From IMG/VR virus record IMGVR_UViG_2690315831_000002: 37,164 nucleotides of DNA; one strand, written 5' to 3'. A program made the translations under genes and the position numbers. Positions 1 through 34,774 of the stretch are shown in pieces (position 1 is the stretch's first letter; every line of letters starts with the position of its first letter). The notes below the pieces were generated by a model. That model was not told where the DNA came from, made no database searches, and saw nothing but the letters and a program-made list of their open reading frames with translations. Source of the stretch: a virus (Duplodnaviria; Heunggongvirae; Uroviricota; Caudoviricetes).

Positions 1-1143
1 CTATGCTGTTTTGATATCTACGATAATCCAGTCTTTACCACGATCATCATTGTATCGGTCGGTCATTTTTCTGGATTTATGGCCTAACAACTTTTGCGTA
101 TCCAGACCCTGTTCCCGATATAACCGTTCTGAGAGAGATCGCTGCTCATGAAATGTGGGCGCAGTTCCTTGCTCCCATTTTATGCCACATTTTTCCCTGG
201 CCTTTTTAAAAGCCGTTGTCAGAGTATTTGCAGAAACCTGGTCTCCTCTGTTTGCTTGAGAGGTAGTGTGACGGTAATGGACCAGATATTTACTAACAAC
301 AGCATCCCTGCACTGAGATATAACTTCACGAAGGGTAATATTCAGAGCATCGCATTTCAGGTTAAGCGGAATAGCAAGTTTTGAACCGGTTTTTTCCTGA
401 GTAATGTGCAACATGTCGTCCCAGATATCAGAGAATTTGAAATTGCAGATATCACCTAAACGTTGTCCAGTAACAAGAGCAAGTAGCATGCCGCATTTTA
501 AATAGGGCTGCCGTCTGCTTACGCTTTCAAATATTGCCTGCCATTCGGGCAGTGACAATCTTTGGCGGTTTACTCGATTTCGCGGTTGTTTTGTTGCCTG
601 CGCTGGGTTAAATCCTGGCGGAACATGTCCTGCGTGTTGTGCTTCTTTGAAGACGTCGATCAACACCATTCTCACGACTTGCGCCATCCTGTTATGACCT
701 TCAGCCTTTACAGCATCAATTATTTCGGCAATATCAAGTGCGGTAATATCCTTGAGGTGTTGCATTCCACAATGCTCACGGAAAAGACGAATGGGTTTGC
801 CTTTTTGCCGATAGGAGTTGGGTCTTAGTTCATTATGTTGCAGCCTGTCCTCCTGGATAGAAATATATTTATCAAGCCATTCTGTCACCGTAATGTCTGA
901 GCGCCTGCCTTTCATTCTTTCCAGACGCTCATTGACGCTTAATATTTGTCGGGTACGTTGTTCAGCAATAATGGTATTTGCTTCAGTAGCAACTTGTTTT
1001 GCTTCATTCTCATCAGTTCCTAAGCTATGAAAACGACCGGATAGTGGATGTTTGTATTGCCAATATACCTTTCCGGTTCGCTTATCTAATTTGCAATATA
1101 AATTGGGTATAGAGATTTTGTGAGATCGGGGTCTAGCAGCCAT
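1..1143 (-). CDS. int: Tyrosine site-specific integrase (lambda Int family, icd-targeting type)
   Basis: 380-aa ORF with stop codon at 1-3; C-terminal catalytic region with R..HxxR..Y pattern ('HEQRSLSERLY', 'GHKSRKMTDRY'); overlaps the downstream xis start as in lambda; the prophage sits at an icd 3' duplication. Confidence 0.9.
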   Translation of the reverse strand: MAARPRSHKISIPNLYCKLDKRTGKVYWQYKHPLSGRFHSLGTDENEAKQVATEANTIIAEQRTRQILSVNERLERMKGRRSDITVTEWLDKYISIQEDRLQHNELRPNSYRQKGKPIRLFREHCGMQHLKDITALDIAEIIDAVKAEGHNRMAQVVRMVLIDVFKEAQHAGHVPPGFNPAQATKQPRNRVNRQRLSLPEWQAIFESVSRRQPYLKCGMLLALVTGQRLGDICNFKFSDIWDDMLHITQEKTGSKLAIPLNLKCDALNITLREVISQCRDAVVSKYLVHYRHTTSQANRGDQVSANTLTTAFKKAREKCGIKWEQGTAPTFHEQRSLSERLYREQGLDTQKLLGHKSRKMTDRYNDDRGKDWIIVDIKTA

Positions 1144-1369
1144 CAGCGATTATCCGTTGGAGTTTTGGGTTTGCGTTTATTGGGAGTTGCGGTTCTGCAA
1201 GCGTTCCTACAAAACGGGAATTTCGGTCAATCATCCAGTAGCGACCAACTTTTATAGCGGGTGGGGCCATCATTTTCCCTTGCGCGTATTTTTTCAGAAC
1301 TCGCTCACTTGGTGCTAAGTCCCCAAATTCTTCTTTAGCCCAGTCCTGTAAAGTGATTAGTCGAGACAT
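1133..1369 (-). CDS. xis: Excisionase
   Basis: 78 aa; N-terminus 'ITLQDWA...' and 'PPAIKVGRYW' resemble lambda Xis ('LTLQEWN...', 'PPPVKDGREY'); position immediately upstream of int with overlapping stop/start. Confidence 0.75.
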   Translation of the reverse strand: MSRLITLQDWAKEEFGDLAPSERVLKKYAQGKMMAPPAIKVGRYWMIDRNSRFVGTLAEPQLPINANPKLQRIIADGC

Positions 1370-1508
1370 TTGTCCTCCTCTTAGCTGCTGAGGGAGTTTG
1401 TGACCGATATATCTGACATGATATTAAGCTCATGGCAGGTACATCTCTTGACTGGTCATAGAGATAAATTTAATGCTGAGAAATGCAGTATTGAATTTAT
1501 CAATTTTT

Positions 1509-1748
1509 CTATTTCCTGCGTATGGCACGTAACTTCTTAATGTGTTCTGCTGTATCGATCTCTTCGGCTATCCGCTCTGATTCCACTTTACTCACAGGTT
1601 CAAAGTCATGATTAAAGCGGAACATGCTGGCGATACATGTTCTGCCTTTTCGGATGTAGTGAACTTTGTTGTGAGTGGAACGCAGGATTTTGCAGGGAGT
1701 GCCGTGGTGGTCGACGTACCAGGTGTTAGGAAAAATGATTCTGAACAT
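1509..1748 (-). CDS. Hypothetical protein (early-left region)
   Basis: 79-aa ORF co-oriented with the int-xis/early-left genes; no recognisable motif. Confidence 0.35.
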   Translation of the reverse strand: MFRIIFPNTWYVDHHGTPCKILRSTHNKVHYIRKGRTCIASMFRFNHDFEPVSKVESERIAEEIDTAEHIKKLRAIRRK

Positions 1749-1795
1749 TTTTACACCTCAGTTGGACGATGTTGAAATTTGCTGCTTTGAGGCCA

Positions 1796-2014
1796 TCACA
1801 ATCCCCATTGTTTGTTCTTAAGTTCGATCTCATCCTGGCAACTTGCACAAGTCCGACAACCCTGAACGGCCAGACGTCTTAGTTCATCTATCGGATCGCC
1901 ACACTCACAACAATGAGTGGCAGATATAGCCTGGTGGTTCAGGCGGTGCATTTTTATTGCTGTGTTGCGCTGTAATTCTTCAATTTCTGATGCTGAATCA
2001 ATGATGTCTGCCAT
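1796..2014 (-). CDS. TraR/DksA-type C4 zinc-finger protein
   Basis: 72 aa with CxxC...CxxC spacing ('CCECGD...CRTCASC'), typical of small phage TraR/DksA-like zinc fingers. Confidence 0.5.
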   Translation of the reverse strand: MADIIDSASEIEELQRNTAIKMHRLNHQAISATHCCECGDPIDELRRLAVQGCRTCASCQDEIELKNKQWGL

Positions 2015-2112
2015 CTTCCATTAATCCCTGAATTGTTGGTTAATACGCTTGAGGGTGAATGCGAACAATAAAAAAGGAGCCTGTAGCTCCCTGATGATTT
2101 TGCTTTTCATGT

Positions 2113-2394
2113 TCACCGTTCCTCAAAGACGCCGTTTAACATACCGATTGCCAGACTTAAGTGAGTCGGTGTGAATCCCATCAGCGTTACCGTTTCGCGG
2201 TGCTTCTTCAGTACGCTACGGCAAATGTCATCGACGTTTTTATCCGGAAACTGCTGTCTGGCTTTTTTGATTTCAGAATTAGCCTGACGGGCAATACTGC
2301 GAAGGGCGTTTTCCTGCTGATGTGTCATTGAACAAGTCCCATGTCGGCAAGCATAAGCACACAGAATATGAAGCCCGCTGCCAGAAAAATGCAT
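2113..2394 (-). CDS. Hypothetical protein (true start may be the internal Met of 'MTHQQENAL')
   Basis: ORF in early-left operon orientation; no motif recognised. Confidence 0.3.
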   Translation of the reverse strand: MHFSGSGLHILCAYACRHGTCSMTHQQENALRSIARQANSEIKKARQQFPDKNVDDICRSVLKKHRETVTLMGFTPTHLSLAIGMLNGVFEER

Positions 2395-2404
2395 TCAGTG
2401 GTTG

Positions 2405-2596
2405 TCATACCTGGTCTCTCTCATCTGCTTCTGCTTTCGCCACCATCATTTCCAGCTTTTGTGAAAGGGATGCGGCTAACGTATGAAATTCTTCGTCTGT
2501 TTCTACTGGTATTGGCACAAACCTGACTCCAATTTGAGCGAGGCTATGTGCCATCTCAATGCTCGTTCTTAACTCAACAGGAGATGCTTTGTGCAT
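2405..2596 (-). CDS. Hypothetical small protein
   Basis: 63-aa ORF between the small-ORF block and exo, same orientation. Confidence 0.3.
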   Translation of the reverse strand: MHKASPVELRTSIEMAHSLAQIGVRFVPIPVETDEEFHTLAASLSQKLEMMVAKAEADERDQV

Positions 2597-2747
2597 ACAG
2601 CTCCCCGTTTATTATTTATCTCCTCAGCCAGCCGCTGTGCTTTCAGGGGATTTCGGGTAACAGAAAGGCCGGGAAATACCCAGCCTCGCTTTGTAACGGA
2701 GTAGACGAAAGTGATCGCGCCTACCCGGATATTATCGTGAGGATGCT

Positions 2748-3428
2748 TCATCGCCATTGCTCCCCAAATACAAAACCAATTTCAGCCAGTGCCTCGTCCA
2801 TTTTTTCGATGAACTCCGGCACCATCTCGTCAAAACTCGCCATGTAATTTTCATCCCGCTCAACCACGACATAATGCAGGCCTTCACGCTTCATTCGTGG
2901 GTCATAGTTGGCAAAGTACCAGGCATCTTTTCGTGTCACCCACATGCTGTACTGCACCTGGGCCATGTAAGCCGACTTTATGGCCTCGAAACCACCGAGC
3001 CGGAACTTCATGAAATCCCGGGAGGTAAACGGGCATTTCAGCTCAAGGCCATTGCCGTCACTGCATAAACCATCGGGAGAGCAGGCGGTGCGCATACTTT
3101 CGTCGCGATAGATGATCGGGGATTCAGTAACATTCACGCCGGAAGTGAATTCAAACAGGGTTCTGGCGTCGTTCTCGTACTGTTTTCCCCACGCCAGCGC
3201 CTTAGCATTAACTTCCGGAGCCACACCGGTGCAAACCTCAGCCAGCAGGGTGTGGAAGTAGGACATTTTCATGTCAGGCCACTTCTTTCCTGAGCGGGGC
3301 TTTGCTATCACGTTGTGAACTTCTGAAGCGGTGATGACGCCGAGCCGTAATTTGTGCCATGCATCATCCCCCTGTTCGACAGCTCTCACGTCGATCCCGG
3401 TACGCTGCAGGATAATGTCCGGTGTCAT
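2748..3428 (-). CDS. exo: Lambda-type 5'-3' exonuclease (Red-alpha, YqaJ family)
   Basis: 226 aa, same length as lambda Exo; translation matches lambda Exo as recalled; followed by bet and gam in the lambda order. Confidence 0.85.
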
Positions 3429-4210
3429 GCTGCCACCTTCTGCTCAGTGGCTTTCTGTTTCAGGAATCCAAGAGCTTTCACTGCTTCGGCCTGTGTCAGT
3501 TCTGACGATGCGCGAATGTCGCGGCGAAATATCTGGGAACAGAGCGGCAATAAGTCGTCATCCCATGTTTTGTCCAGGGCAATCAGCAGAGTGTTAATCT
3601 CCTGCATGGTTTCATCGTTAACCGGAGTGATGTCGCGTTCCGGCTGGCGTTCTGCAGTGTATGCGGTATTTTCGACAATGCGCTCGGCTTCATCCTTGTC
3701 ATAGATACCAGCAAATCCGAAGGCCAGGCGGGCACACTGAATCATGGCTTTATGCCGTAACATCCGTTTGGGATGCGACTGCCACGGGCCGGTGATTTCT
3801 CTGCCTTCGCGGGTTTTGAATGGTTCGCGTCGGCATTCATCCATCCACTCGGTAACGCAGATCGGATGATTACGGTCCTTGCGGTAAATCCGGCATGTAC
3901 AGGATTCATTGTCCTGCTCAAAGTCCATGCCATCAAACTGCTGGTTTTCATTGATGATGCGGGACCAGCCATCAACGCCCACCACCGGAACGATGCCGTT
4001 CTGCTTATCAGGGAAGGCGTAAATTTCTTTCGTCCACGGATTAAGGCCGTATTGGTTGGCGACGATCAGCAATGCGATGAACTGCGCATCGCTGGCATCG
4101 CCTTTAAATGCTGTCTGGCGAAGAGTGGTGATCAGTTCCTGTGGGTCGACAGAATCCATGCCGACACGTTCAGCCAGCTTCCCAGCCAGCGTTGCGAGTG
4201 CTGTACTCAT
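3425..4210 (-). CDS. bet: Red-beta single-strand annealing recombinase
   Basis: 261 aa, same length as lambda Bet; 4-bp overlap with exo; translation matches lambda Bet as recalled. Confidence 0.9.
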
Positions 4211-4215
4211 CCGTT

Positions 4216-4512
4216 TTATACCTCTGAATCAATATCAACCTGGTGGTGAGCAATGGTTTCAACCATGTACCGGATGTGTTCTGCCATGCGCTCCTGAAAC
4301 TCAACATCGTCATCAAACGCACGGGTAATGGCTTTTTTGCTGGCCCCGTGACGTTGCAAATGATCGATGCAGAGTGATTCAAACAGGTGCTGGGGCAGAC
4401 CTTTTTCCATGTCGTCTGCCAGTTCTGCCTCTTTCTCTTCACGGGCGATCTGCTGGTAGTGACGCGCCCAGCTCTGAGCCTCAAGACGATCCTGAATGTA
4501 ATAAGCGTTCAT
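4216..4512 (-). CDS. gam: Gam (RecBCD inhibitor), short form
   Basis: 98 aa '[21 protein letters not shown]...[10 protein letters not shown]' is near-identical to the lambda GamS sequence as recalled. Confidence 0.9.
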
Positions 4513-4587
4513 GGCTGAACTCCTGAAAATGGCTGTGAAAATATCGCCCGCGAAATGCCAGGCTGATTAGGAAAACAGGAAAGGGGA

Positions 4588-4998
4588 TTAGTGATTCAGG
4601 CCGTTACCGCGTCCGTCGAGAAAAACTTCCACGAGCAAATCACGGGTATAAGTGCGCTCGATGCCGCGATGCAGATATAGCCGTCCGCGTAAATTAGCTG
4701 ATGCAGTCCAGGTACCATCTTTGTGTTTGACCAGCATTCCTGGCATGACCGCACCTCGATTAACGGTCTGCGTTCCGTAATGTTGATGAACCATAAAAAC
4801 TCCTGCCCGTAAGCTGGGCTGCTGAACATATAGAGACTTCTGCGCGTATTCAGGCGGTGGATGGCCGCCGGTTGTCATAACTAAGTCGCCTCGTTGAAGC
4901 GACTGAGGTATGAAGTGTTGAGTTGATTTCAGCTGGTCACACCGACGTTCACGCGTCCGCTTCACCCCTCGCACTCCCCGGAGCCTGCTGAAATTCAA
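4588..4998 (-). CDS. Hypothetical protein at the first-gene-from-pL position (N-like slot); start uncertain
   Basis: 136-aa ORF immediately downstream (leftward) of the OL-like repeat region; arginine-rich N-terminus '[15 protein letters not shown]'; no confident homology. Confidence 0.3.
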
Positions 4999-5039
4999 GC
5001 TGCGGATCTAAGCGGTCATCGCAACGGTGAAGTTATAAA

Positions 5040-5140
5040 TTTTGTGATACCAACATCGATGCAATAGCATGACAATAGCAATAGCTATTGGTGTGGTCAA
5101 TAGCAATTAGTATTGATAATGTTTGATATACTTGTTCTGA
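5040..5140. promoter_or_regulatory. OL-like operator/promoter region
   Basis: Four 'CAATAGC' half-sites including the 12-bp perfect palindrome 'caatagctattg', plus 'ATTGATAATG'; the same half-site and 'ATTGATAATG' recur in the cI-cro intergenic region. Confidence 0.45.
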
Positions 5141-5381
5141 TTGATAATTAAATGAATTTTTATAAAAAAGAGTATGAAGACTTATTGGTGTGGCTGAAAT
5201 TTGTACAGCTTTAATGTGCCTCGTGACAGAGGGGCATCGGGTTGTGGTGAGCTCGGTAGGTTGGCAGCAAATTTAATCGAATATTGGTAGTCTGAGTTCT
5301 TATGTGTATTTTTTTAGTCAGTTGCTAAATGATACATAAATGACTTATTAGCCCCGCCATCGCTTTGTACGGGGCGTTTAT

Positions 5382-6989
5382 TTAATTTATCTTTTCAACA
5401 TTTCCATGAATCAACAAGTCGTAGGCAAGAAATAGTTTCCTATACTGGGTTTTTAAATTGTCAACGTCGCATGCCTTGAATTGAACAAACGCTTCTTTTT
5501 TAACATAATCTTCAATCTCCTCTTTGGGGATATTTTTTATGTTCTTAATGACTATAGACAATTCTTTGTACTTTTTGAACGTTGCATCCTTTATATCTTT
5601 GATGTTGGTGTAAATTTTATTTGCATTGATTTTATCTAAGGTGATTTTATTGAGCAAGTCGTCTAGTTTTCCGTGGCGTTCAATGCGTTGATTTAGTTTT
5701 AACACATATTTAGCTGGCAAACTTAACTCTTTCAAATTACATGAGGTTATAGTTTTTGAAAATGGAAGTTGTAATGAGTTTACTGAACCTAATATGAAAT
5801 CTATGGCTAATTTATTAGATATTTCATTTTTATTAAATAAGTAGTCTTCAAGATAATTTATTTCTTTAACTTGTGTGAATACATACTTTTTATCGCCTAG
5901 AGCAACAACTAAATTTTTTCCTTGTTTAACACTTTCTTCAAGTCTGTCTAAGTCAGAAGGTGAAACCAATAGAGTATCTAAGTGCCCTTTTTCACCCTCA
6001 TTAATGATAAGTGTTTTAATGGCTCTTTGATACCTTAAAACATCATAAGGTGAGAGCCCTTCATCAACAGCACTGATCTCATCATAGATCTGTTTATAGT
6101 TATCTGTTTTAACAGATGTATATGTAATTTGTAGCTGTTGATCGGTAATCTGTTTTGGTACTACTTCCTGTTCATTCTCTTTATATTCAATCAAAATTAT
6201 TCTTTCAGCTGATTTTCGACCATCTTCTCTAGGTAGTTGTGAGGAAAAATCAGAAAGAAGTTTCTTTACATTCCTGTCAGTTAAAGAATATCCAAGAAAA
6301 ACTATTGGATTTTTAATCATGTTAGATAGTATCTTGGCACTAATGAGTATAGATTTGTTGTCATATTTTTCGTAATCATCTTTATTTATGATTATTGAGT
6401 GTGGATCCTTTATATCACCATGTATTTTGTATAACTCACTCCAGCCAATAGTATCTTCGAAAAAACCATTATTTCCAATATAGAGTTTTGGAATTACATT
6501 TTGCTCTTGAAGTAAATTTTCTATGAAAGCATCATAATTTGTAGTGATGATTATCTTGGCCTTTTTTATTAATGTTTTAAATGATGCTAATTCATCAAGA
6601 TTTACATCCTTTCTGATTGTGTTATTAGAAAATCTTTGGCATATGGCGTATTTAAATGGTGAAATATCTTCACTAAAAACCCTCTTGGCATCTAGTCCAT
6701 TTAATTTTAATTTGCCAGTCCTAAACAATAGATTGTAATCATTTTCAATTTTACTTGCTGCCTCTGTATAAATCTTATGATCGATATCATTATCACTGTT
6801 ATTTTTATGTGATTCTTTTATTGTTAAAAGATAACTATAGAAATCATTTGTGGGATTTGTTATTTTCCAATACTCGTTTAATAGCTCTTCCCACGTTGGG
6901 TAGTTCTCTAAATATCTTTTTGAAATGCCTGAGCCAATAAAGACTATTGGGTAATTTTTGAATTCAAAATTTTTTTTTGACATATCCAT
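5382..6989 (-). CDS. SIR2-like (ThsA-type) putative NAD+ hydrolase with unassigned C-terminal domain; candidate anti-phage effector
   Basis: 535 aa; SIR2 hallmark motifs 'PIVFIGSGIS', 'IITTNYDAFIE', 'YKIHGDIKDP', 'KDDYEKY', 'PIVFLGYSLTDRNV' resemble the Thoeris ThsA SIR2 domain as recalled; very AT-rich versus flanks; sits between OL and cI (lambda rexAB position), co-oriented with cI; GGA 5 nt upstream of ATG. Confidence 0.8.
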   Translation of the reverse strand: MDMSKKNFEFKNYPIVFIGSGISKRYLENYPTWEELLNEYWKITNPTNDFYSYLLTIKESHKNNSDNDIDHKIYTEAASKIENDYNLLFRTGKLKLNGLDAKRVFSEDISPFKYAICQRFSNNTIRKDVNLDELASFKTLIKKAKIIITTNYDAFIENLLQEQNVIPKLYIGNNGFFEDTIGWSELYKIHGDIKDPHSIIINKDDYEKYDNKSILISAKILSNMIKNPIVFLGYSLTDRNVKKLLSDFSSQLPREDGRKSAERIILIEYKENEQEVVPKQITDQQLQITYTSVKTDNYKQIYDEISAVDEGLSPYDVLRYQRAIKTLIINEGEKGHLDTLLVSPSDLDRLEESVKQGKNLVVALGDKKYVFTQVKEINYLEDYLFNKNEISNKLAIDFILGSVNSLQLPFSKTITSCNLKELSLPAKYVLKLNQRIERHGKLDDLLNKITLDKINANKIYTNIKDIKDATFKKYKELSIVIKNIKNIPKEEIEDYVKKEAFVQFKACDVDNLKTQYRKLFLAYDLLIHGNVEKIN

Positions 6990-7095
6990 ATACCTTAAGC
7001 TCTGCTTGAAACATCCATTCTATAAATTATGAGGATGTCAGCATGTCTCACCAAAACATCATCTGGTTATCTTGATGAAATCTGTCATTAATAAT

Positions 7096-7788
7096 CTACC
7101 CATGTTTTCTATATGTCTGTGGCATGCTCCCAATAACTTTCCCAAATATAAATACCCGATTCATTTCGTCTTTTTCTATCGGGTCCCACGGTGAGTAGCT
7201 CTTGTTATCAGAGATAACCAGCAGCTTATCCTTCATCATTTGCAGGCGCTTTACATGGGCTGTGTCGTCGTACAGAAACGCATAGATACCATCACCGTCG
7301 AAAGATTTAACAGTGATATCAACGAACAGAAGATCACCTGGTTCGATCGTTCCTGACATGCTGTCACCGCGTACGTTAATGATGCGGATATTTTCTGCCT
7401 TCCTGCCATCGAACATGTGACGAGCATCGTCAAACGAGTACTCAACCGAGCGTAGGACTTCTACAAACTCACGGTTGATGACACCCGGCCCAGCACTGAC
7501 TTCTATATCAAGAACGTCAATTTTGAAGTATTTGGAATGGTTGACAGCAGGCTTCCCTGATTGTTGACCGTCATTTCTCATCGGGCCTATGCCTGATGAG
7601 AGCCACTCTGTTCGAACACCCAATGCATTAGCTATTTCAACAATTTTTGTTGAGCCGCGTGCGTTGCCGCTTGTCAGTCTCCAGATTGTGGGTTGAGCTA
7701 CGCCAGACGCCTTTGCAAGAGCGCCTTGAGACATTCCAGATTGTTCCATCGCTAGGTTTAAGCGATCAGCAAGAGTTTCTTTTTTCAT
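7096..7788 (-). CDS. cI: CI-type prophage repressor (HTH_XRE + S24 LexA-like autopeptidase)
   Basis: N-terminal HTH 'MSQGALAKASGVAQPTIWRL'; C-terminal S24 signature 'VRGDSMSGTIEPGDLLFVD' plus downstream Lys; divergent from cro; start set at internal ATG ('MKKETLADRL'), the longest ORF would start at TTG 7824. Confidence 0.85.
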   Translation of the reverse strand: MKKETLADRLNLAMEQSGMSQGALAKASGVAQPTIWRLTSGNARGSTKIVEIANALGVRTEWLSSGIGPMRNDGQQSGKPAVNHSKYFKIDVLDIEVSAGPGVINREFVEVLRSVEYSFDDARHMFDGRKAENIRIINVRGDSMSGTIEPGDLLFVDITVKSFDGDGIYAFLYDDTAHVKRLQMMKDKLLVISDNKSYSPWDPIEKDEMNRVFIFGKVIGSMPQTYRKHG

Positions 7789-7898
7789 AAGTTTTAATTT
7801 ATACGCTTGCGTATTGATGGTCAAAACACGTTTTGCTATTGATTGGATTAATACGCATTGCTATTATCCATTCATTGTAATACCAATAGGAATTGATA
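7789..7898. promoter_or_regulatory. OR-like operator region with divergent pRM/pR-type promoters
   Basis: Intergenic between divergent cI and cro; palindrome 'ATACGCttGCGTAT'; 'GCTATTG'/'CAATAG' half-sites and 'ATTGATAATG' shared with the OL-like region. Confidence 0.5.
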
Positions 7899-8126
7899 AT
7901 GACAAATCAAACCATTCAACTCGCAATCAGTATTACAGGTAGTCAAAAACGACTGGCAGATCTATGCGGTGTAGCCCAGCCCACTGTTTGGCGTTGGCTA
8001 CACGGTGGCGGAATTGATGCCCGCTATGTAATGAAAATTGTCTCAGCCACTGGTGGAAAGATTAAACCAGCAGATATTCGTCCCGACCTTGCACCATTGT
8101 TTAACGCGAGTAATTCTGCCGCCTAA
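7899..8126 (+). CDS. cro: Cro/YdaS-like HTH regulator
   Basis: Small HTH protein ('GSQKRLADLCGVAQPTVWRWL') divergent from cI; ATG at 7899 preferred over the TTG at 7893 used by the ORF track. Confidence 0.75.
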   Translation: MTNQTIQLAISITGSQKRLADLCGVAQPTVWRWLHGGGIDARYVMKIVSATGGKIKPADIRPDLAPLFNASNSAA

Positions 8127-8150
8127 ACTGCGGCGTTAACTGATAAGGCA

Positions 8151-8696
8151 ATGACTATGCAACCACTTACATACCAACAGACTAGCGGATTTAGCCCGAC
8201 TGCGGTGATAAATCGTTCTCAAATAAAACAGGTGCCAGGCCACGAAAAAATCCGTGATGCCGTTCGCGCGTGGTCGGCTGCAGATAATCAGGATGTTGTT
8301 GCCGCACTCATTGTGAATGAGTATCGGGAGCAGGGCGGCGGCACCATCGATTTCCCTGATGATGTCAGCCGTGCACGCCAGAAGCTGTTCCGCTTCCTCG
8401 ATAACAAATTCGATTCTGAAAAATACCGAAATAACGTGCGTGAACTGACCCCGGCAATTCTGGCGGTACTACCGCTGGAATATCGCGGCCACCTGGTTGA
8501 GCAGGATAGCTTCATGGCTCGGCTGGCTGAAATGGAAAAGGAACTCTGTGAGGCAAAGCAGGCGGTCATTCTCAACGCACCACGCCACCAGAAACTGAAG
8601 GAAATGAGTGAAGGTATTGTGTCGATGTTTCGTGTGGACCCGGATCTGGCTGGTCCATTAATGGCGATGGTTACCACCATGCTGGGGGCAATATGA
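8151..8696 (+). CDS. YdaT-like regulator (functional CII analogue)
   Basis: 181 aa following the cro-like gene; 'EYREQGGG' and 'LTPAILAVLPLEYRGHL' resemble Rac YdaT ('EEYLRQGGG', 'LIPAILAILPRELRHRL') as recalled. Confidence 0.55.
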   Translation: MTMQPLTYQQTSGFSPTAVINRSQIKQVPGHEKIRDAVRAWSAADNQDVVAALIVNEYREQGGGTIDFPDDVSRARQKLFRFLDNKFDSEKYRNNVRELTPAILAVLPLEYRGHLVEQDSFMARLAEMEKELCEAKQAVILNAPRHQKLKEMSEGIVSMFRVDPDLAGPLMAMVTTMLGAI

Positions 8697-8782
8697 CAGG
8701 TTCAGAAATGGCGAAAGCCGGTCTGCGGGAACAGAGCCGACTTTCAGGTGCAAATCGTAACGCACTCATTGCGGAAGGAATT

Positions 8783-9712
8783 ATGGCAAACACTGCTGAG
8801 ATATTCAATTTTCCAGTGCCGGATGAGGCACAAAAGGAGCCGCGCGTGGCAGATCTCGATGATGGTTATACGCGCATTGCAAATGAGTTGCTGGAAGCTG
8901 TGATGCTGGCCGGATTAACACAGCACCAGCTTCTGGTCTTCCTGGCTGTCATGCGCAAAACATATGGCTTTAATAAAAAACTGGATTGGGTGAGCAACGA
9001 GCAACTGTCCGAATTGACCGGGATATTGCCGCACAAGTGTTCTGCTGCAAAAAGTGTTCTGGTAAAGCGTGGGATTTTGATTCAGAGCGGGCGGAATATC
9101 GGTATTAATAATGTGGTCAGTGAATGGGCAACATTACCCGAATCAGGTAAGAAAAATAAAGTTTACCTGAAAGAGGTAAATTTACCTGAATCAGGTAAGA
9201 AAAGTTTACCCAAATCAGGTAAAGGCGTTTACCCGAATCAGGTAAACACAAAAGACAAACTAACAAAAGACAATATAAAACCTTTTTCGTCCGAGAATTC
9301 TGGCGAATCCTCTGACCAACCAGAAAACGATCTTCCTGTGGTGAAACCAGATGCTGCAATTCAGAGCGGCAGCAAATGGGGGACAGCAGAAGACCTGACC
9401 GCCGCAGAGTGGATGTTTGACATGGTGAAGACCATCGCGCCCTCAGCCAGAAAACCGAATTTTGCAGGGTGGGCTAACGATATCCGCCTGATGCGTGAAC
9501 GTGATGGACGTAACCACCGCGACATGTGCGTGCTGTTCCGCTGGGCATGCCAGGACAACTTCTGGTCCGGTAACGTGCTGAGTCCGGCCAAACTCCGCGA
9601 CAAGTGGACCCAGCTCGAAATCAACCGAAACAAGCAACAGGCTGGCGTGACAGCCGGCAAACCAAAACTCGACCTGACGAACACTGACTGGATTTACGGG
9701 GTGGATTTATGA
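8783..9712 (+). CDS. O: Replication initiator O (divergent N-terminal iteron-binding domain, lambda-like C-terminal domain)
   Basis: Start at 'MANTAEIFNF' with GGAAGG RBS, paralleling lambda O 'MTNTAKILNF'; C-terminal half from 'SSENSGESSDQPENDL' to 'TDWIYGVDL' near-identical to lambda O as recalled; contains iterons; stop overlaps P start. Confidence 0.85.
   Translation: MANTAEIFNFPVPDEAQKEPRVADLDDGYTRIANELLEAVMLAGLTQHQLLVFLAVMRKTYGFNKKLDWVSNEQLSELTGILPHKCSAAKSVLVKRGILIQSGRNIGINNVVSEWATLPESGKKNKVYLKEVNLPESGKKSLPKSGKGVYPNQVNTKDKLTKDNIKPFSSENSGESSDQPENDLPVVKPDAAIQSGSKWGTAEDLTAAEWMFDMVKTIAPSARKPNFAGWANDIRLMRERDGRNHRDMCVLFRWACQDNFWSGNVLSPAKLRDKWTQLEINRNKQQAGVTAGKPKLDLTNTDWIYGVDL
9136..9245. repeat. 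Replication origin iterons inside O
   Basis: Five direct repeats of about 15 bp 'ACCYRAAWSAGGTAA' (starts about 9136, 9165, 9184, 9208, 9231), each with internal dyad 'TTACC..GGTAA', followed by an A-rich tract (9245-9290); same layout as lambda ori within O. Confidence 0.75.
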
Positions 9713-10410
9713 AAAACATCGCCGCACAGATGGTTAACTTTGACCGTGAGCAGATGCGCCGGATCGCCAACAATATGCCGGAACAGTACGACGAAAAGCC
9801 GCAGGTACAGCAGGTAGCGCAGATCATCAATGGTGTGTTCAGCCAGTTACTGGCAACTTTCCCTGCGAGCCTGGCTAACCGGGATCAGAACGAACTGAAC
9901 GAAATCCGCCGCCAGTGGGTTCTGGCTTTCCGGGAAAACGGGATCACCACAATGGAACAGGTTAACGCAGGAATGCGCGTAGCCCGTCGGCAGAATCGAC
10001 CATTCCTGCCATCACCCGGGCAGTTTGTTGCCTGGTGCCGGGAAGAAACATCCGTTACCGCTGGGCTGCCAAACGCCAGCGAGCTGGTTGATATGGTTTA
10101 CGAGTATTGCCGGAAGCGTGGCCTGTATCCGGACGCAGAGTCTTATCCATGGAAATCAAACGCGCACTACTGGTTGGTTACCAACCTGTACCAGAACATG
10201 CGGGCCAATGCGCTGACTGACGCGGAATTACGGCGTAAAGCTGCCGATGAGCTGACCTGTATGACCGCGCGAATTAACCGTGGTGAGGCGATACCTGAAC
10301 CAGTAAAACAACTTCCTGTCATGGGCGGTAGACCTCTAAATCGTGCACAGGCTCTGGCGAAGATCGCAGAAATCAAAGCTAAGTTCGGACTGAAAGGAGC
10401 AAGTGTATGA
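9709..10410 (+). CDS. P: Replication protein P (DnaB helicase loader)
   Basis: 233 aa 'MKNIAAQMVNFDREQMRRIANNMPEQYDEKPQV...' near-identical to lambda P as recalled. Confidence 0.95.
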   Translation: MKNIAAQMVNFDREQMRRIANNMPEQYDEKPQVQQVAQIINGVFSQLLATFPASLANRDQNELNEIRRQWVLAFRENGITTMEQVNAGMRVARRQNRPFLPSPGQFVAWCREETSVTAGLPNASELVDMVYEYCRKRGLYPDAESYPWKSNAHYWLVTNLYQNMRANALTDAELRRKAADELTCMTARINRGEAIPEPVKQLPVMGGRPLNRAQALAKIAEIKAKFGLKGASV

Positions 10411-10442
10411 CGGGCAAAGAGGCAATTATTCATTATGAGTAA
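10407..10442 (+). pseudogene. ren: ren remnant (11 codons then stop)
   Basis: ATG overlapping the P stop encodes 'MTGKEAIIHYE' then TAA; lambda Ren begins 'MTGKEAIIHY' as recalled; homology is replaced by low-GC foreign sequence. Confidence 0.6.
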
Positions 10443-10613
10443 CTTTCTAAATTTTTTGAGCCAGATTAGTGGTCTTGGATTCAGTTTACGTCTCAGATAC
10501 TGAGAAGAATCACAATTTGTGATACATGTTAACATTATGACTTTTAAGGCTTTAACTGAATTATTTTAAGAGTATTCTGACCCTTTCGTATCAATGCATG
10601 AACAGGAATCCAC

Positions 10614-11633
10614 ATGTGTTACAGTAATGTTACAGATCGTGATCTTATGGGGCAAATTGCTACTAAACTAAATGACTATCGAAACCCTCCTCAAGGTGGC
10701 ATGAGCATTGATCATGTTAATCGATGGATTAATCAATTTGAGTTAACTGATAGGCGATTTGTCTTAGAGGAAACGGACCGATTAATGGGGATTGGATACT
10801 TTTCTGAGAACGACTATCGCAGGGTTATTAGTAGTATCGCCACTGATGAGCAAAATGAAAGTTTCTTTCAAACTGCAGCGTTTCTCGATATTCAGAACCA
10901 AGGTACCAGTCAATCTGAGTTTTTGGATTTACTTCGAGATGATTGTGTAGAAGAATTCAACGTTGTGACCAGACTTTCACAACGTCAAAGAGTTAGTTCA
11001 TTCCGTGAATTTATTTACGTTGACGATGTTTTATTCTCCGGAGCTAAGGCAATCAATGATTTAATTTGGTTTATTGAGCACTTTAAACTCCAAAATATTA
11101 CAATATTGGTGTACTTTTTAGGTGGGCACACATATTCAACATGGAAGATAAAAGACCAACTTGAACGAAGATTTGCGGGCAGAAATATTTCAGTTGGCGT
11201 TGGTGGAGGTGAGTTTGTATTTGTTGAAAATAAACTCCGAAATAGTTCGAATTCGGAGGTTTTATGGCCAAAAGCGCAAAGTGTATCAATACCTGAATGG
11301 GCTGACGGTCAAATACATTATTTAGGAACATATCGAAACGGTTACGTCGCGAATAAAATTTTTCCTGATGAGCAGAGACGTGATCGTTTTGAAACTATTC
11401 TGACAAAAGTTGGGTTTGATATCCTTGGTCATAGTCAAAATCCCTCTGCTGTCATAAAGCCCTTAGGCTTTTCAACTTTCAATGGTGTTGGGTTTGGCGG
11501 AACTATCTTTACTTTCAGAAACTGCCCAAATAATACCCCTCTCGCGTACTGGTGGGGAACTTATCTTCGAACAGGAAATAGAGCTCTGGATTGCTGGTAT
11601 CCACTTATGAAGCGTAATGTGTATAATCGGTGA
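10614..11633 (+). CDS. Hypothetical 339-aa protein, upstream partner of a NADAR protein (candidate toxin/effector)
   Basis: ORF with AGGA 7 nt upstream; stop overlaps the start of the next gene (GTGA); lower GC than lambda-like flanks; only a weak PRTase-like loop 'FIYVDDVLFSGAKAI'; no confident fold assignment. Confidence 0.7.
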   Translation: MCYSNVTDRDLMGQIATKLNDYRNPPQGGMSIDHVNRWINQFELTDRRFVLEETDRLMGIGYFSENDYRRVISSIATDEQNESFFQTAAFLDIQNQGTSQSEFLDLLRDDCVEEFNVVTRLSQRQRVSSFREFIYVDDVLFSGAKAINDLIWFIEHFKLQNITILVYFLGGHTYSTWKIKDQLERRFAGRNISVGVGGGEFVFVENKLRNSSNSEVLWPKAQSVSIPEWADGQIHYLGTYRNGYVANKIFPDEQRRDRFETILTKVGFDILGHSQNPSAVIKPLGFSTFNGVGFGGTIFTFRNCPNNTPLAYWWGTYLRTGNRALDCWYPLMKRNVYNR

Positions 11634-12247
11634 TCATGAGCTATAGACTATACCTGTTTCACAACACAGTTTCTTTCAGGAAAACCACCGAGAAATGGGG
11701 TGGTCTTTCCAACATGGCCAAAGGATATCCGCTCTTCGTTAATGGTATACCCATTCAATCGAGTGAAATTCTTTACCAAGCATGCCGATATCCAGACTAT
11801 CCAGATATCCAAAGGGTTATTATTACCCAAGCCAACCCTTACGAAGCTAAACAAACCGCCAGAACCTTCGAGGCCAAAACCCGTACTGGTTGGGAAAAAA
11901 ATCGAGTTTCGGTAATGAAATGGTGTGTCTGCGTTAAGCTTTGCCAGAACTGGGAATCGTTCTTCGCGCTATTGGATAGCACAGGAGATCATGACATTGT
12001 TGAGCACTCAGAGAAGGACCAATTTTGGGGGGCTAGTAAGGACTCCGAAGGTAACTTTTATGGCATGAACGTGTTAGGTCGTATCCTTATGGATGCGAGA
12101 GATATTGCAAGAAAGAAGGGGCCTGCAGGGTTTGCTACGATACCGCCGCTACCCTTGGATAGGTTTCTTCTGCTCGGGGAGCAAATACGTGATGTCACTT
12201 TCTCTCCACCACCGATGGATTCAGGGCAAAGCTTATCGCTTTTTTAA
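11630..12247 (+). CDS. NADAR (YbiA/DUF1768-like) domain protein
   Basis: 'GWEKNRVSVMKWCVCVKLCQNWESFFALLDSTGDHDIVEHSEKDQFWGASKDSEGNFYGMNVLGRILMDARD' parallels E. coli YbiA as recalled; translationally coupled to upstream gene (GTG 11630 or ATG 11636). Confidence 0.8.
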   Translation: MIMSYRLYLFHNTVSFRKTTEKWGGLSNMAKGYPLFVNGIPIQSSEILYQACRYPDYPDIQRVIITQANPYEAKQTARTFEAKTRTGWEKNRVSVMKWCVCVKLCQNWESFFALLDSTGDHDIVEHSEKDQFWGASKDSEGNFYGMNVLGRILMDARDIARKKGPAGFATIPPLPLDRFLLLGEQIRDVTFSPPPMDSGQSLSLF

Positions 12248-12531
12248 TGTGGCTGTTGTTCCTCTCTCGGTCGTGACAGTTCTGCAACCCCGCTTTGGCG
12301 GATTTTTTATAAATTATGCAACTTATTGACTTGATACCGATATTTCAGACTTTAACATAGCAGCCAAAATCTAGGACGAAGGCGACAAAGTAAACGTTGA
12401 ATTGGCTGCCATCGGCGTAGCGTTCAAAGAGTGGATGAATATGTCGGTTATAGCGGAAGCGGTGATGCGTGAGCAGACATCGCTCTGCCCAAGGCATCCG
12501 CCCCTCGACATCTTAAGCAGGAAGGTGAAAA

Positions 12532-13014
12532 ATGATAAGTGCAGAAGGACTGCAGCGGTTACTTAATTTATCGGAGCCTCCATCTGATGAACTGATTGAT
12601 GTTTATCTTCAATTCAGCATGATTTTTCCTAGGGTCGAACAAAGTTTTTTTGGTGGCTTTGCTAAGGGGGAAGACAGTTTAAATTATGCTCGAACGTTAC
12701 TTGACGCCGGGATAAAGGTGCCCAACGAACTTTTTCACGATTTTAAGCAGAGATACATTTTGAACGGGGATGCGCAGGAAAGACTTGACGCCCTCTGTTT
12801 CGGTCGAGAGAGAGATAAGCGGGGAATAGTTAATGGGCTTCAAAATGACGCAGCAACAGATCTAAACACCATGTCTACAGTATTAAAGATAGTTATAAGG
12901 ATAAGAAATAACCTTTTCCACGGAAATAAAGACGCTTATCTTTTTGTTGATTCTCAAGAGCAAGCGCAACTATTGAGATGGTGCGTGAGATTTCTCCAAG
13001 GATTATTAAATTAA
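12532..13014 (+). CDS. Hypothetical 160-aa protein with possible HEPN-like Rx4HG motif
   Basis: ORF with AGGAAGG RBS; 'RNNLFHG' near the C-terminus fits the Rx4-6H HEPN pattern; lies between the NADAR operon and the nin genes. Confidence 0.55.
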
Positions 13015-15515: not shown

Positions 15516-16319
15516 CTATTTCTTTTTGGGAAGTGGATACTTTAAGCTAACATTTTGAGTTTCTATATCTCGTGGCCCTCGAGTTTTATCATAAAAATAC
15601 CAGATATTAAATTTTCTCTCAGTGTGCCATGTATCATATTGCAAGTGATCCCAGCCTAAATATGAAGCAACATAGTTTGATACTCTTATTTTGGCTTCAG
15701 ATGAAGCTTTTCCTTGATATGCGCACATAACCGCACCTAAGAAAAAATCGGCTAGCTGAATGTTTTCAGATGCTTTAGAGTCTTTTGTCACTACACTGCT
15801 GATTATCCCTTTACGACCAAATTTTCTATTCAATATGTTATTGGCAATAACATTTAGTTCTTCATCAGCCTTTTTATAACGAGATGCGATAGGATCAACT
15901 TCAATCCTGAAGTAACTGTCTCTTTCAGGGTGTGCAGAAATTACAGAGCTAATTTTTGTGGTAATGAGATTTGTGAAGTGCTTTCTCCTTGCCAGGTCAT
16001 AATCTCCATTATGAAATGCCTTATTTACTATTGATTTTTCAACCACGATACAATGAAAAGCTAGCCAAGGAACTCTAAAGAATAAGTCGATCAGCTCAAG
16101 ATAAAATTCAGAGTATCTTTTTGAATGGGCTTTTTGCCATTTTATTTCTTCAAAAAAAACATGTTTTCTGCGTAGTTCTCTGATTAGTTGACAGAAATCC
16201 CCACGGCGTTGGTACTTCATCCACAGACTGCCAAAGCCGTAGAAACGTTGTCCATCAATGCCAGATTCATCGCAAGCAATATGCCAAATTAACTTACCAA
16301 TGTTATCTTTTTCTGTCAT
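15516..16319 (-). CDS. DUF3800-like protein (uncharacterised; candidate defence/moron gene)
   Basis: 267 aa with N-terminal 'IACDESG' and C-terminal 'QLAD', fitting the DES / QxxD description of DUF3800 as recalled; AT-rich; antisense between Q and the holin. Confidence 0.7.
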   Translation of the reverse strand: MTEKDNIGKLIWHIACDESGIDGQRFYGFGSLWMKYQRRGDFCQLIRELRRKHVFFEEIKWQKAHSKRYSEFYLELIDLFFRVPWLAFHCIVVEKSIVNKAFHNGDYDLARRKHFTNLITTKISSVISAHPERDSYFRIEVDPIASRYKKADEELNVIANNILNRKFGRKGIISSVVTKDSKASENIQLADFFLGAVMCAYQGKASSEAKIRVSNYVASYLGWDHLQYDTWHTERKFNIWYFYDKTRGPRDIETQNVSLKYPLPKKK

Positions 16320-33656: not shown

Positions 33657-34774
33657 CGACAATAACCGGGAGTGAGCAACATACAGCATCACGTATTCCC
33701 ATGCGAAATATCTGGATGCTGATGCTGTACGCTTCAGATCTGTTTCGTCAGTTAGGGCGCAATCAGATCGCAGTAGAAGATAACCCAGCAGAAATCCCCG
33801 ACCTGGTGGCGACAATCCTCCTTCATGAGATTACGCTGCGCCGACGTCGCAATTTAAATATGGGATACCAAACTTGTCATGCGGCCCTGAACCGGGTGAG
33901 AGGGCGCATTGACATACTGTATACTGCCAGTCATCAACTACTGGAACGGGGACAGGTTGCCTGCCATTTTCAAGACATAACCCTCAACACCCCCCGAAAT
34001 CGCTATGTTCGCTGTGCGTTAGAACGTCTGGCCTCAATCATAGTGAAACCGTCTTTGGCGGCAGATTGCCATTTTATGGCAATATCACTTCGCCGTGAGG
34101 GGATAAATGGAGGATATCCTGCCCCCCACGAATTACCCTCAGTGTGGCGTTTTGGACGCCATGATGCCGCAGATAAACCGATGGTCGATGCCGCACGATT
34201 AGCTTTTGAACTGCTGATGCCGACCGAAGATCAAGGCCAATATCTTTTACCTGCGCCCTCAAATAACCTTTACTGGATGAGAAGACTATTTGAAAAAGGT
34301 ATCGCTGGCTTATATCGTGTACACCTTGCCAAAACAACTTGGCAGGTCTCTGCAGGGAAAGAGCTGAAATGGGCGTTGAGCGATCAAAGTGCAGGTAGTG
34401 CAGAGATTTTCCCGACAATGAAGTCAGACATTATTCTGGAACACAAGACTGCCCAGCGGCGTATTATTATCGATACCAAATTTAATTCGATTCTGACAAA
34501 GGGTTGGCATCGGGAGCAATCACTACGTAATGGCTATATTTATCAGCTATATACCTACCTTAGAACACAGGAGAACAAGACGGATCCGCTTTCGCTCAAT
34601 GCCGCTGGTCTTCTACTTCATCCAGCTGTTGGCTATATGCTTAATGAGTATGTTGTCACTCAGGGACATAAGATCCATTTTGCTACAGTAGATATGACGG
34701 TAGATGCTAAAGCAATTAAAAAACAATTGCTGGCAATAGCCCATGATTGTGCAGGAGTCGCGGTTGATGACTAA
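33653..34774 (+). CDS. mcrC: McrC-like nuclease subunit
   Basis: 373 aa, start overlaps mcrB stop (ATGA); N-terminus 'IPMRNIWMLMLYA' parallels McrC 'IPVRNIYYMLTYA' as recalled; 'IIIDTKF' matches the PD-(D/E)xK-type core position. Confidence 0.85.
   Translation: MTTITGSEQHTASRIPMRNIWMLMLYASDLFRQLGRNQIAVEDNPAEIPDLVATILLHEITLRRRRNLNMGYQTCHAALNRVRGRIDILYTASHQLLERGQVACHFQDITLNTPRNRYVRCALERLASIIVKPSLAADCHFMAISLRREGINGGYPAPHELPSVWRFGRHDAADKPMVDAARLAFELLMPTEDQGQYLLPAPSNNLYWMRRLFEKGIAGLYRVHLAKTTWQVSAGKELKWALSDQSAGSAEIFPTMKSDIILEHKTAQRRIIIDTKFNSILTKGWHREQSLRNGYIYQLYTYLRTQENKTDPLSLNAAGLLLHPAVGYMLNEYVVTQGHKIHFATVDMTVDAKAIKKQLLAIAHDCAGVAVDD

Follow-up and report, generated by a model that had tools for sequence, protein, structure and literature searches.

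What does a pair of co-oriented genes at positions 10614-12247 of a 37,164-nucleotide stretch of prophage DNA (IMG/VR record IMGVR_UViG_2690315831_000002; the whole stretch is referred to below as the window) do for the bacterium that carries it? An earlier note, made from the letters of the window, described the pair as a cassette of two coupled genes, accessory cargo at a hotspot of the prophage, and proposed that an upstream gene of unknown fold and a downstream NADAR gene write and erase ADP-ribose as a defence or toxin-antitoxin (TA) module. Both open reading frames (ORFs) were found where they had been placed, and the cassette is almost certainly a prophage-borne allele of the anti-phage system DS-32, in which a phosphoribosyltransferase (PRTase) effector of the PRTase-CE family is co-translated with a YbiA-type NADAR protein, and which would protect the lysogen from other phages. 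For its chemistry we tentatively propose a writer/eraser pair resembling DarT/NADAR and based on phosphoribosyl pyrophosphate (PRPP), a proposal in which we infer the use of PRPP, the acceptor, the role of the eraser and the trigger, and which we rate at somewhat below even odds. Taken as a whole, DS-32 identity and PRPP-dependent writing and erasing on DNA together make the best explanation that we can offer, with a probability of roughly 0.45.

DS-32 is a validated anti-phage system of the DefensePredictor study (DeWeirdt, Mahoney & Laub, Science 2026; PMC13092281; bioRxiv 10.1101/2025.01.08.631726), consisting of the PRTase DS-32A and the NADAR protein DS-32B, of which the latter resembles the DarTG1 antitoxin. 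Gene 1 of the window scored 304.4 bits against the NCBIfam equivalog NF053875.1 (DS32_1_antiphage; cutoff 250), with residues 12-334 aligned to positions 2-322 of the 322-position profile, and gene 2 scored 260.1 bits against NF053876.1 (DS32_2_antiphage; cutoff 240) over the full profile, 1-181. RefSeq already names the identical proteins "phosphoribosyltransferase-like anti-phage protein" and "NADAR family anti-phage protein", at which point the description of gene 1 as unknown and without an assignable fold has to be given up. The gene order is also that of DS-32, with B immediately following A on the same strand after a 2-nt spacer. The clone tested in that study (WP_000097610.1 for A and WP_032260665.1 for B) is found, in complete genomes, in a related prophage at icd, after P and before ybcN/ninE; its full-length identity to the window pair is 51% for A and 82% for B. 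The identification of the cassette as DS-32 follows from these passed equivalog cutoffs, the RefSeq naming and the homologous tested clone in the same slot.

The tested clone lowered Bas26 by 10^3.7 and RB69 by 10^1.6 in the first plating screen in MG1655, where SECphi18, T5 and Bas67 were affected only marginally or in showing small plaques (PMC13092281). The defence role foreseen by the earlier note is thus borne out for the homologous pair, which protects Escherichia coli from phages, and protection by the window allele would be expected by analogy with that 51%/82%-identical clone. WP_032217954.1, the product of gene 2, is itself listed as a predicted defence gene in the E. coli pangenome table of the same study (PMC13092281). 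DS-32 loci were present in about 63 of 5,426 complete E. coli genomes, 44 with the allele type of the window and 19 with the validated type; the pair was also found in 39 IMG/VR contigs and in PHROG 8525, and the phage genomes of INPHARED gave no DNA or protein match to it. The system is therefore already known and the find is a rediscovery; its authors offered as a mechanism only a possible "TA partner swapping" (PMC13092281). What value is left in the find lies in the mechanism, where comparative evidence points to DNA as a possible substrate and makes the hypothesis directly testable.

The two ORFs are not chance ORFs, as their profile matches reach E values of 9e-91 and 6e-78. An AGGA Shine-Dalgarno sequence lies 6 nt 5′ of the gene 1 ATG. 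The overlapping stop and start that the earlier note had read in GTGA (11630-11633) is present, and gene 2 begun at this GTG would span 11630-12247 (205 aa) with a 4-nt overlap. It is more likely, however, that gene 2 starts at the ATG at 11636, 2 nt past the gene 1 stop, and encodes 203 aa, because all homologs, including the validated DS-32B and the RefSeq model, begin there (MSYRLY...); the tight coupling of the two genes holds. The GC content, 38.8% in gene 1, 45.6% in gene 2 and 34% in the upstream spacer, was lower than the 51-52% of the O-P and nin genes, as had been noticed. The cassette presumably has its own promoter in this spacer, in which the promoter scan found no match to the sigma-70 consensus, and where a TCACA-N3-TGTGA palindrome at about 10510-10522 did not differ from shuffled sequence. 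Beyond gene 2, a weak CCGC-UUUG-GCGG hairpin is followed by a U6 run (12290-12308); it was under the threshold of the terminator scan, with a stability z of -0.32 against shuffles, and the promoter and terminator scans around the cassette gave nothing above shuffle expectation. A cassette 94% identical to that of the window was found in SCU-485, and the shared homology stops at 12413.

Gene 1 matched the Pfam family PF24390 (PRTase-CE) with an E value of 2e-39 and the PADLOC retron model PRTase_III-A with 2e-8, in line with the HHblits probability of 100 between DS-32A and Retron_III PRTase tabulated in the DS-32 paper (PMC13092281). Its sequence retrieved nothing from the PDB, leaving fold comparison alone as informative. 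The AlphaFold2 model (pLDDT 91.6) comprises an N-terminal helical region (residues 1-88), a core at about 89-205 predicted to be a five-stranded parallel beta-sheet flanked by helices, as in type I PRTases, and a basic C-terminal PNNxP module at about 206-339 with an isoelectric point of 9.7. No solved structure matched the N-terminal helical region or the last ~130 residues at the C-terminus, and a search of a viral library gave one full-length match, which is another PRTase-CE protein. The profile and fold searches that the earlier note had suggested thus assigned gene 1 to a modelled PRTase fold and not to that of an ADP-ribosyltransferase (ART).

The segment FIYVDDVLFSGAKAI, in which a weak reminder of a PRPP loop had been seen, was found to be just that: two adjacent acidic residues are followed by a small-residue turn (V136-D137-D138-V-L-F-S142-G143). 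D138 does not vary among 42 homologs, in which D137 is conserved to at least 90%, and across 84 sequences drawn from many phyla conservation is 95% or more for both. Conservation in the protein is highest in the block R302-N-C-P-N-N-x-P-L...WWG...W-x-P-L..R, in which R302, N303, P305, N306, N307, P309 and L310 are invariant in homologs. It contains the PNNxP motif, a hallmark of retron-associated PRTases (PMC12746101), because of which we place gene 1, by sequence, in the defence/retron PRTase clade and not among the salvage enzymes. The PRTase-CE family comprises 745 clusters at 50% identity, and some of its members are fused to LRR, Sel1, FGE-sulfatase(-like), DnaJ or coiled-coil modules, which is the usual sensor-plus-effector layout. 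Since ShosT binds PRPP and Retron-Eco11 consumes it, and since the fold and the motif agree, gene 1 would also be expected to bind PRPP and to transfer ribose-5-phosphate.

The PNNxP effector would suit a retron, which was considered and rejected. A reverse transcriptase (RT) is absent from the RefSeq annotation of the identical region, and no Rfam match, and thus no msr/msd RNA, was found anywhere in the window; with neither RT nor structured RNA, and with P and NADAR genes as neighbors, the locus is not a retron.

The NADAR signature read in gene 2 was confirmed by PF08719 (E value 2e-23; 83.9 bits, cutoff 35.1) and by a PDB match to E. coli YbiA (2B3W; E value 4e-12). The residues that Schuller et al. 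2023 (PMC11543638) had defined structurally and by mutagenesis were transferred to gene 2 through HMMER alignments with YbiA (2B3W) and with 8BAU, the NADAR of P. nicotianae, and the conserved catalytic residues are present: E44 in helix 1, R51 (Lys elsewhere), E123 in the last strand, D128 and W131. In the partner NADARs of PRTase-CE genes, which come from many phyla, E44, R51, R83, E123 and W131 are kept in all 79 and D128 in 78. Gene 2 scored 69.7 bits against TIGR02464, the model of the housekeeping riboflavin N-glycosidase, and, this being under the cutoff of 73.7, it is not the housekeeping YbiA. It is predicted to be a catalytically intact N-glycosidase of the YbiA type. The DarT1-associated kind that had been expected is not what was found, as the residue two positions before Glu123, an Asp in the DarT1-type (BC4488-type) enzymes, is Ile121, invariant in 79/79.

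On these grounds the model of the earlier note, with gene 1 as an NAD+-dependent DarT-like ART toxin and a NADAR that reverses guanine ADP-ribosylation, is very improbable. The order of the genes, effector upstream of NADAR, agrees with it. However, no DarT or ART profile matched gene 1, in keeping with the lack of DarT motifs already remarked upon, and what was found instead is the fold of type I PRTases together with a PRPP loop, without an ART fold or NAD+-binding features; DeWeirdt et al. likewise report that DS-32A has no sequence or structural similarity to DarT, only the NADAR proteins being homologous (PMC13092281). The NADAR lacks the DarT1-linked Asp as well. Because the fold of gene 1 is that of a PRTase, the ART model is effectively refuted, and any group moved by gene 1 would be 5-phosphoribosyl from PRPP.

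The pocket of the NADAR gives a hint on what it might release. Its distal-ribose and (pyro)phosphate contacts are all invariant in the 79 partners. The adenine-proximal ribose is contacted in the P. nicotianae NADAR by Asp86, in place of which the partners have an invariant Arg (Arg83), a replacement shared with E. coli YbiA; the position of the adenine-stacking Tyr is variable. With the distal contacts kept, the Asp replaced and the Tyr position variable, the pocket suggestively fits a ribose-5-phosphate adduct rather than ADP-ribose, as far as pairwise alignments can indicate. The known substrates of YbiA are N-ribosyl-5′-phosphates (PMC11543638, PMC11125620).

Two natural variants bear on the relation of the two genes. 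In E. coli ETEC1732 and ETEC1734 the PRTase gene is interrupted by ISKpn26, an element of the IS5 family, and the NADAR gene is intact. In an otherwise near-identical IMG/VR contig (UViG_2617271072_000006, site ~5280; L095), a PRTase differing by one residue is followed by a NADAR gene that is frameshifted by an A6 run in place of A7; either the homopolymer was misread in sequencing, or this is a NADAR-null genotype that exists in nature. The two give opposite hints on TA behavior.

A NADAR in a prophage may also be read as cargo against the host: it would shield phage DNA from host DarT1-type toxins as in T4-like phages, and gene 1 would be a nucleotide-salvage PRTase. Orphan NADARs of phages do neutralize DarTG1 (PMC11825919), and phages carry salvage PRTases, as the PRTase-only matches of the viral library search showed. 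We consider this scarcely probable: the homologous pair gives defence when cloned into MG1655, gene 1 falls in the defence/retron clade by its PNNxP motif, gene 2 stays below the housekeeping cutoff, and the pair is obligately linked and present also in chromosomal restriction-modification (R-M)-like operons far from prophages.

This linkage was seen in a scan of one genome per species, which gave 80 loci; with two more loci included, 81 were assessable. The NADAR gene lies directly 3′ of the PRTase-CE gene in 81/81 of them, and in 39/39 viral contigs. The junctions are within ±20 nt in 62 of 70 loci, most commonly as a 17-nt overlap, and no conserved third gene follows the NADAR gene, the neighbors being heterogeneous. 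Among 78 complete NADAR partners, 41 consist of NADAR only, like that of the window, and 37 are extended. DNA-recognition modules account for 34 of these 37 extensions: 26 have a complete HsdS (type I R-M specificity) region, 4 have DUF1156 together with a DNA methyltransferase, and 4 have helix-hairpin-helix (HhH) motifs. For the 27 fusions of HsdS size, hsdM is immediately upstream in 15, and in 7 more a GmrSD-like gene is upstream with hsdM before it, so that 22/27 are in hsdM-(gmrSD)-PRTase-NADAR::hsdS operons (examples in Table 1); no HsdR-like gene was seen within the ~5-kb flanks of the NADAR::HsdS loci. An SNF2/DEAH helicase precedes three of the four DUF1156-methyltransferase fusions, in a DISARM-like arrangement, and three loci have the layout of a ~490-aa upstream gene (possibly radical SAM), PRTase and NADAR::HhH. 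On a metagenomic contig (L004, 3943-8006), a BRCT::PRTase-CE fusion followed by a NADAR gene stands beside LigA-like ligase genes. The LigA-like NAD-dependent ligase there is split into ORFs (Ia/adenylation/OB, then HhH), and its BRCT end seems to have been taken up by the cassette. Enterobacter mori (L006, 2901-6571) has two same-strand PRTase-CE genes, of 343 and 341 aa, separated by about 1 kb that holds a short ORF, and a single NADAR gene after them. No description of the R-M-embedded architecture was found, be it in the DS-32 paper, the Aravind-lab NAD/ADPr survey or the other literature searched, the coverage of which was incomplete.

The operons with hsdM could also be understood as guard or decoy systems, in which the NADAR, or in the relatives the HsdM-NADAR::HsdS complex, holds the PRTase inactive by association until a phage protein, perhaps an anti-restriction DNA mimic or a replication/recombination protein, releases the effector, as happens to PrrC held by EcoPrrI and to RonA held by the HsdMS complex of Ronin. 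The 22/27 loci with hsdM but no detected HsdR within ~5 kb have a nuclease-less layout like Ronin. The parts of DS-32A prone to sensing also diverge fast: between the two E. coli A alleles the N-terminal region, core and linker are 36-44% identical and the C-terminal module 72%, and this module and the NADAR stay conserved at 72-86%. Catalytic residues invariant in 79/79 would, however, be superfluous in a pure scaffold, the NADAR of the window lacks an HsdS domain, and its neighborhood contains no hsdM. We regard such a release mechanism as quite unlikely overall, though plausible for the R-M-embedded relatives; it bears on the trigger more than on the chemistry, and is compatible with a writer/eraser pair or with a futile cycle.

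The writer/eraser mechanism that we favor would run as follows. DS-32A would bind PRPP and attach its ribose-5-phosphate to a nitrogen nucleophile, for which a nucleobase in DNA is the likeliest candidate; with the adduct in place, replication would be blocked in the invading phage, in the infected cell, or in both; DS-32B would hydrolyze the resulting N-glycosidic bond and so keep host DNA clean; and infection would tip the balance towards modification. PRPP is proposed as the donor, not NAD+, because the partner enzyme has a PRTase and not an ART fold. DNA is proposed as the substrate because of the NADAR fusions to HsdS, methyltransferase and HhH, the BRCT::PRTase fusion, the DNA-handling partners and the basic C-terminus. 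Among other defence PRTases, the toxicity of ShosT requires PRPP binding and the DD pair and comes with a DNA-damage phenotype; PRTase toxins are known also in PsyrTA/RqlHI and Ophion; and the partners that counter defence PRTases handle DNA, namely ShosA (DprA-like, with RecA), RqlH and the msDNA of retrons. When the PRTase of Retron-Eco11 is triggered by phage helicases, PRPP falls by about 50% and is the sole metabolite that changes significantly.

That fall is also what a futile cycle would predict, in which DS-32A joins PRPP to a small-molecule base and DS-32B hydrolyzes the N-ribosyl-5′-phosphate again, the net reaction being PRPP + H2O to ribose-5-phosphate and pyrophosphate. Both proteins would then be co-effectors, with no toxin or antitoxin, and the drain on PRPP would starve phage nucleotide synthesis and lead to abortive infection or growth arrest. 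The obligate pairing (81/81, 39/39) with both active sites strictly conserved suits cooperating enzymes, the NADAR pocket resembles that of YbiA, a small-molecule N-ribosyl-5′-phosphate glycosidase, and a tolerated frameshift of the NADAR in L095 would be less puzzling with a PRTase that does no harm by itself. The cycle gives, on the other hand, no account of the 34/37 DNA-module fusions or of BRCT::PRTase; retron and sensor-fused PRTase-CE proteins are apparently effectors without these NADAR fusions, though in neighborhoods that could not be checked; and the drop of PRPP in Retron-Eco11 was only about 50%. Overall we think it unlikely, while a serious possibility.

Several points weigh against the PRPP-based writer/eraser model or against its transfer to the window. 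The PRPP fall in Retron-Eco11 fits plain PRPP consumption equally well, and the PRTase of this retron was non-toxic when expressed alone. ShosT bound PRPP but no purine or pyrimidine tested. The L095 frameshift, if real, argues against a constitutively toxic writer. DS-32A of the window is only 51% identical to the tested protein, and its PRPP loop deviates at Y135, F141 and K145 from the classical PROSITE signature of PRTases. The NADAR of the window has no DNA-binding fusion, and the case for a DNA substrate is borrowed by analogy from relatives that are about 30% identical.

A wider reading is that DS-32A-type PRTases are PRPP-dependent nucleic-acid phosphoribosyltransferases, with DNA N-5′-phosphoribosylation as an immune weapon and the YbiA-type NADAR as its dedicated eraser, and that in many other bacteria the pair replaces the nuclease in type I R-M-like and DISARM-like operons; we hold this to be doubtful, if conceivable enough to pursue. 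Such chemistry was not found described in the literature searched. If true, these operons would be "restriction" systems in which phosphoribosylation, and not cleavage, puts foreign DNA out of action, and bacterial immunity would gain a new reversible DNA modification that could explain the whole PRTase toxin clade. The question of the acceptor is common to DS-32A, the type III retron effectors, ShosT, PsyrT and OpnC of Ophion, and the obligate PRTase-NADAR linkage, the ribose-5-phosphate-like pocket and the repeated fusions to DNA modules make the question of mechanism experimentally concrete.

The window consists of a cryptic lambdoid prophage that sits next to icd in E. coli and is 99.9% identical to that of strain A35, and an IMG/VR contig of 37,163 bp matches at the same coordinates. 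The cassette had been placed where ren should be, and its surroundings agree, with O and P upstream and the YbcN/NinB-like gene, NinE and RusA downstream; the P/nin junction is the ren/ninA slot of lambda. It is a variable cargo site, since in a related prophage with the validated DS-32 allele (L085) an MT-A70-family methyltransferase pseudogene (7437-8021) lies between P and DS-32A. In the A35 copy (compared over 1-32526 of the window), Q, ybcN and a tail-fiber gene are marked as frameshifted by PGAP, and the head decoration gene is directly followed by lom and tail-fiber genes, the major capsid and tail-shaft genes being absent. The prophage appears to be defective.

Other cargo is listed in Table 1. 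A SIR2-like gene of about 29% GC adjoins the cI-like repressor, in the slot of rexAB in lambda, as separate defence cargo. The earlier note had seen an NAD+/ADP-ribose theme in it together with the cassette; the gene is there, but a functional link was not supported, and the two are coincidental cargo in separate hotspots. The AAA_5/McrC pair also flanks the related prophage L085. Beyond the cassette, ORF160 was considered as its third gene and ruled out, as it is missing from 94%-identical cassette loci and lies past the end of homology. It is present in 55 E. coli genomes independently of DS-32, has no match in PADLOC, Pfam or the PDB, and adjoins a DNA polymerase III theta (holE-like) pseudogene remnant (12390-12566) annotated by PGAP in A35, an annotation that lacks ORF160 itself.

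Table 1. Features of the DS-32 cassette, its prophage and the related R-M-like operons (positions in the window, except for the last four rows, which refer to the named loci)
Feature	Position	Strand	Remark
Gene 1, 339 aa, DS-32A-type phosphoribosyltransferase-like anti-phage protein	10614-11633	+	ATG start; identical to RefSeq WP_032217952.1
Gene 2, 203 aa, DS-32B-type NADAR anti-phage protein, predicted YbiA-type N-glycosidase	11636-12247	+	identical to RefSeq WP_032217954.1
Upstream spacer, P to gene 1	10411-10613	+	34% GC; AGGA Shine-Dalgarno 10604-10607
Putative PRPP-binding loop of gene 1, F133-IYVDDVLFSGA-K145	11010-11048	+	acidic pair D137-D138
PNNxP signature of gene 1, R302-NCPNNTP-L310	11517-11543	+	within most conserved gene 1 block
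Gene junction	11630-11638	+	GTG 11630; gene 1 stop TGA 11631-11633; conserved gene 2 ATG 11636
Gene 2 codon E44	11765-11767	+	
Gene 2 codon R51	11786-11788	+	
Gene 2 codon R83	11882-11884	+	
A7 homopolymer in gene 2	11895-11901	+	A6 in L095
Gene 2 codon E123	12002-12004	+	
Gene 2 codon D128	12017-12019	+	
Gene 2 codon W131	12026-12028	+	
3′ flank moving along with the cassette	12248-12413	+	homology limit against SCU-485 cassette
SIR2-like protein, 535 aa	5382-6989	-	Pfam SIR2_2; PADLOC candidate PDC-S25, E 9e-235
Replication gene O	8693-9712		PF04492; upstream of cassette
Replication gene P	9709-10410		PF06992; upstream of cassette
ORF160	12532-13014	+	PHROG 27260; R-x4-H motif (RNNLFH), reminiscent of HEPN RNases
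YbcN/NinB-like gene	13204		then NinE, RusA; downstream of cassette
DUF3800 protein, candidate defence gene	15516-16319	-	PADLOC candidate PDC-M04A, E 3e-34; just past Q antiterminator gene
Acyltransferase_3 gene	29545-30633	-	at far prophage end or just beyond
AAA_5 ATPase and McrC-family pair, McrBC-like type IV restriction system	31674-34774	+	at far prophage end or just beyond
R-M-like operon, L028 Bradyrhizobium sp.	1383-9556		
R-M-like operon, L030 Rhodoferax antarcticus	2632-8191		
R-M-like operon, L044 Poseidonocella pacifica	890-8160		
R-M-like operon, L058	3488-6936		

Compared with known systems, the window pair is closest to DS-32 itself, with which it shares the two families, their order, the tight junction and the prophage slot; it is a different allele from the tested clone, and its phage range may differ. 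With DarTG1 and YarT-YbiA it shares a NADAR N-glycosidase beside a transferase whose product would be a ribosyl adduct with an N-glycosidic bond, in a defence or TA role, the DNA substrate being shown for DarT1 and inferred for YarT; the NADAR of YarT-YbiA is of the YbiA type, as in the window. Unlike DarTG1, the window has no DarT ART-fold toxin and no catalytic Asp two residues before the Glu, and unlike in both systems the partner has a PRTase fold, for which the donor would be PRPP, and the NADAR has the family-specific R51 and R83. Gene 1 is homologous to the effector of type III-A retrons (Retron-Eco11), with the PRPP loop and PNNxP common to both, and in both cases it would be an anti-phage effector that is probably PRPP-dependent; the window, however, has no RT, msr/msd RNA, winged-helix or C-terminal tail, and the partner is a NADAR instead of an RT-msDNA complex.

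ShosTA and PsyrTA/RqlHI likewise have a type I PRTase toxin with an essential DD pair in the PRPP loop and a DNA-related phenotype, and a second gene that neutralizes the toxin, for which binding is not necessarily involved. [quoted passage not shown] Ronin and PrrC/EcoPrrI, finally, are comparable to the distant hsdM-PRTase-NADAR::hsdS relatives and not to the window, Ronin having the layout of hsdS and hsdM plus a toxin; their effector is a 61-aa membrane peptide or an anticodon nuclease, whereas that of the relatives is a pair of enzymes in which the NADAR is covalently fused to HsdS.

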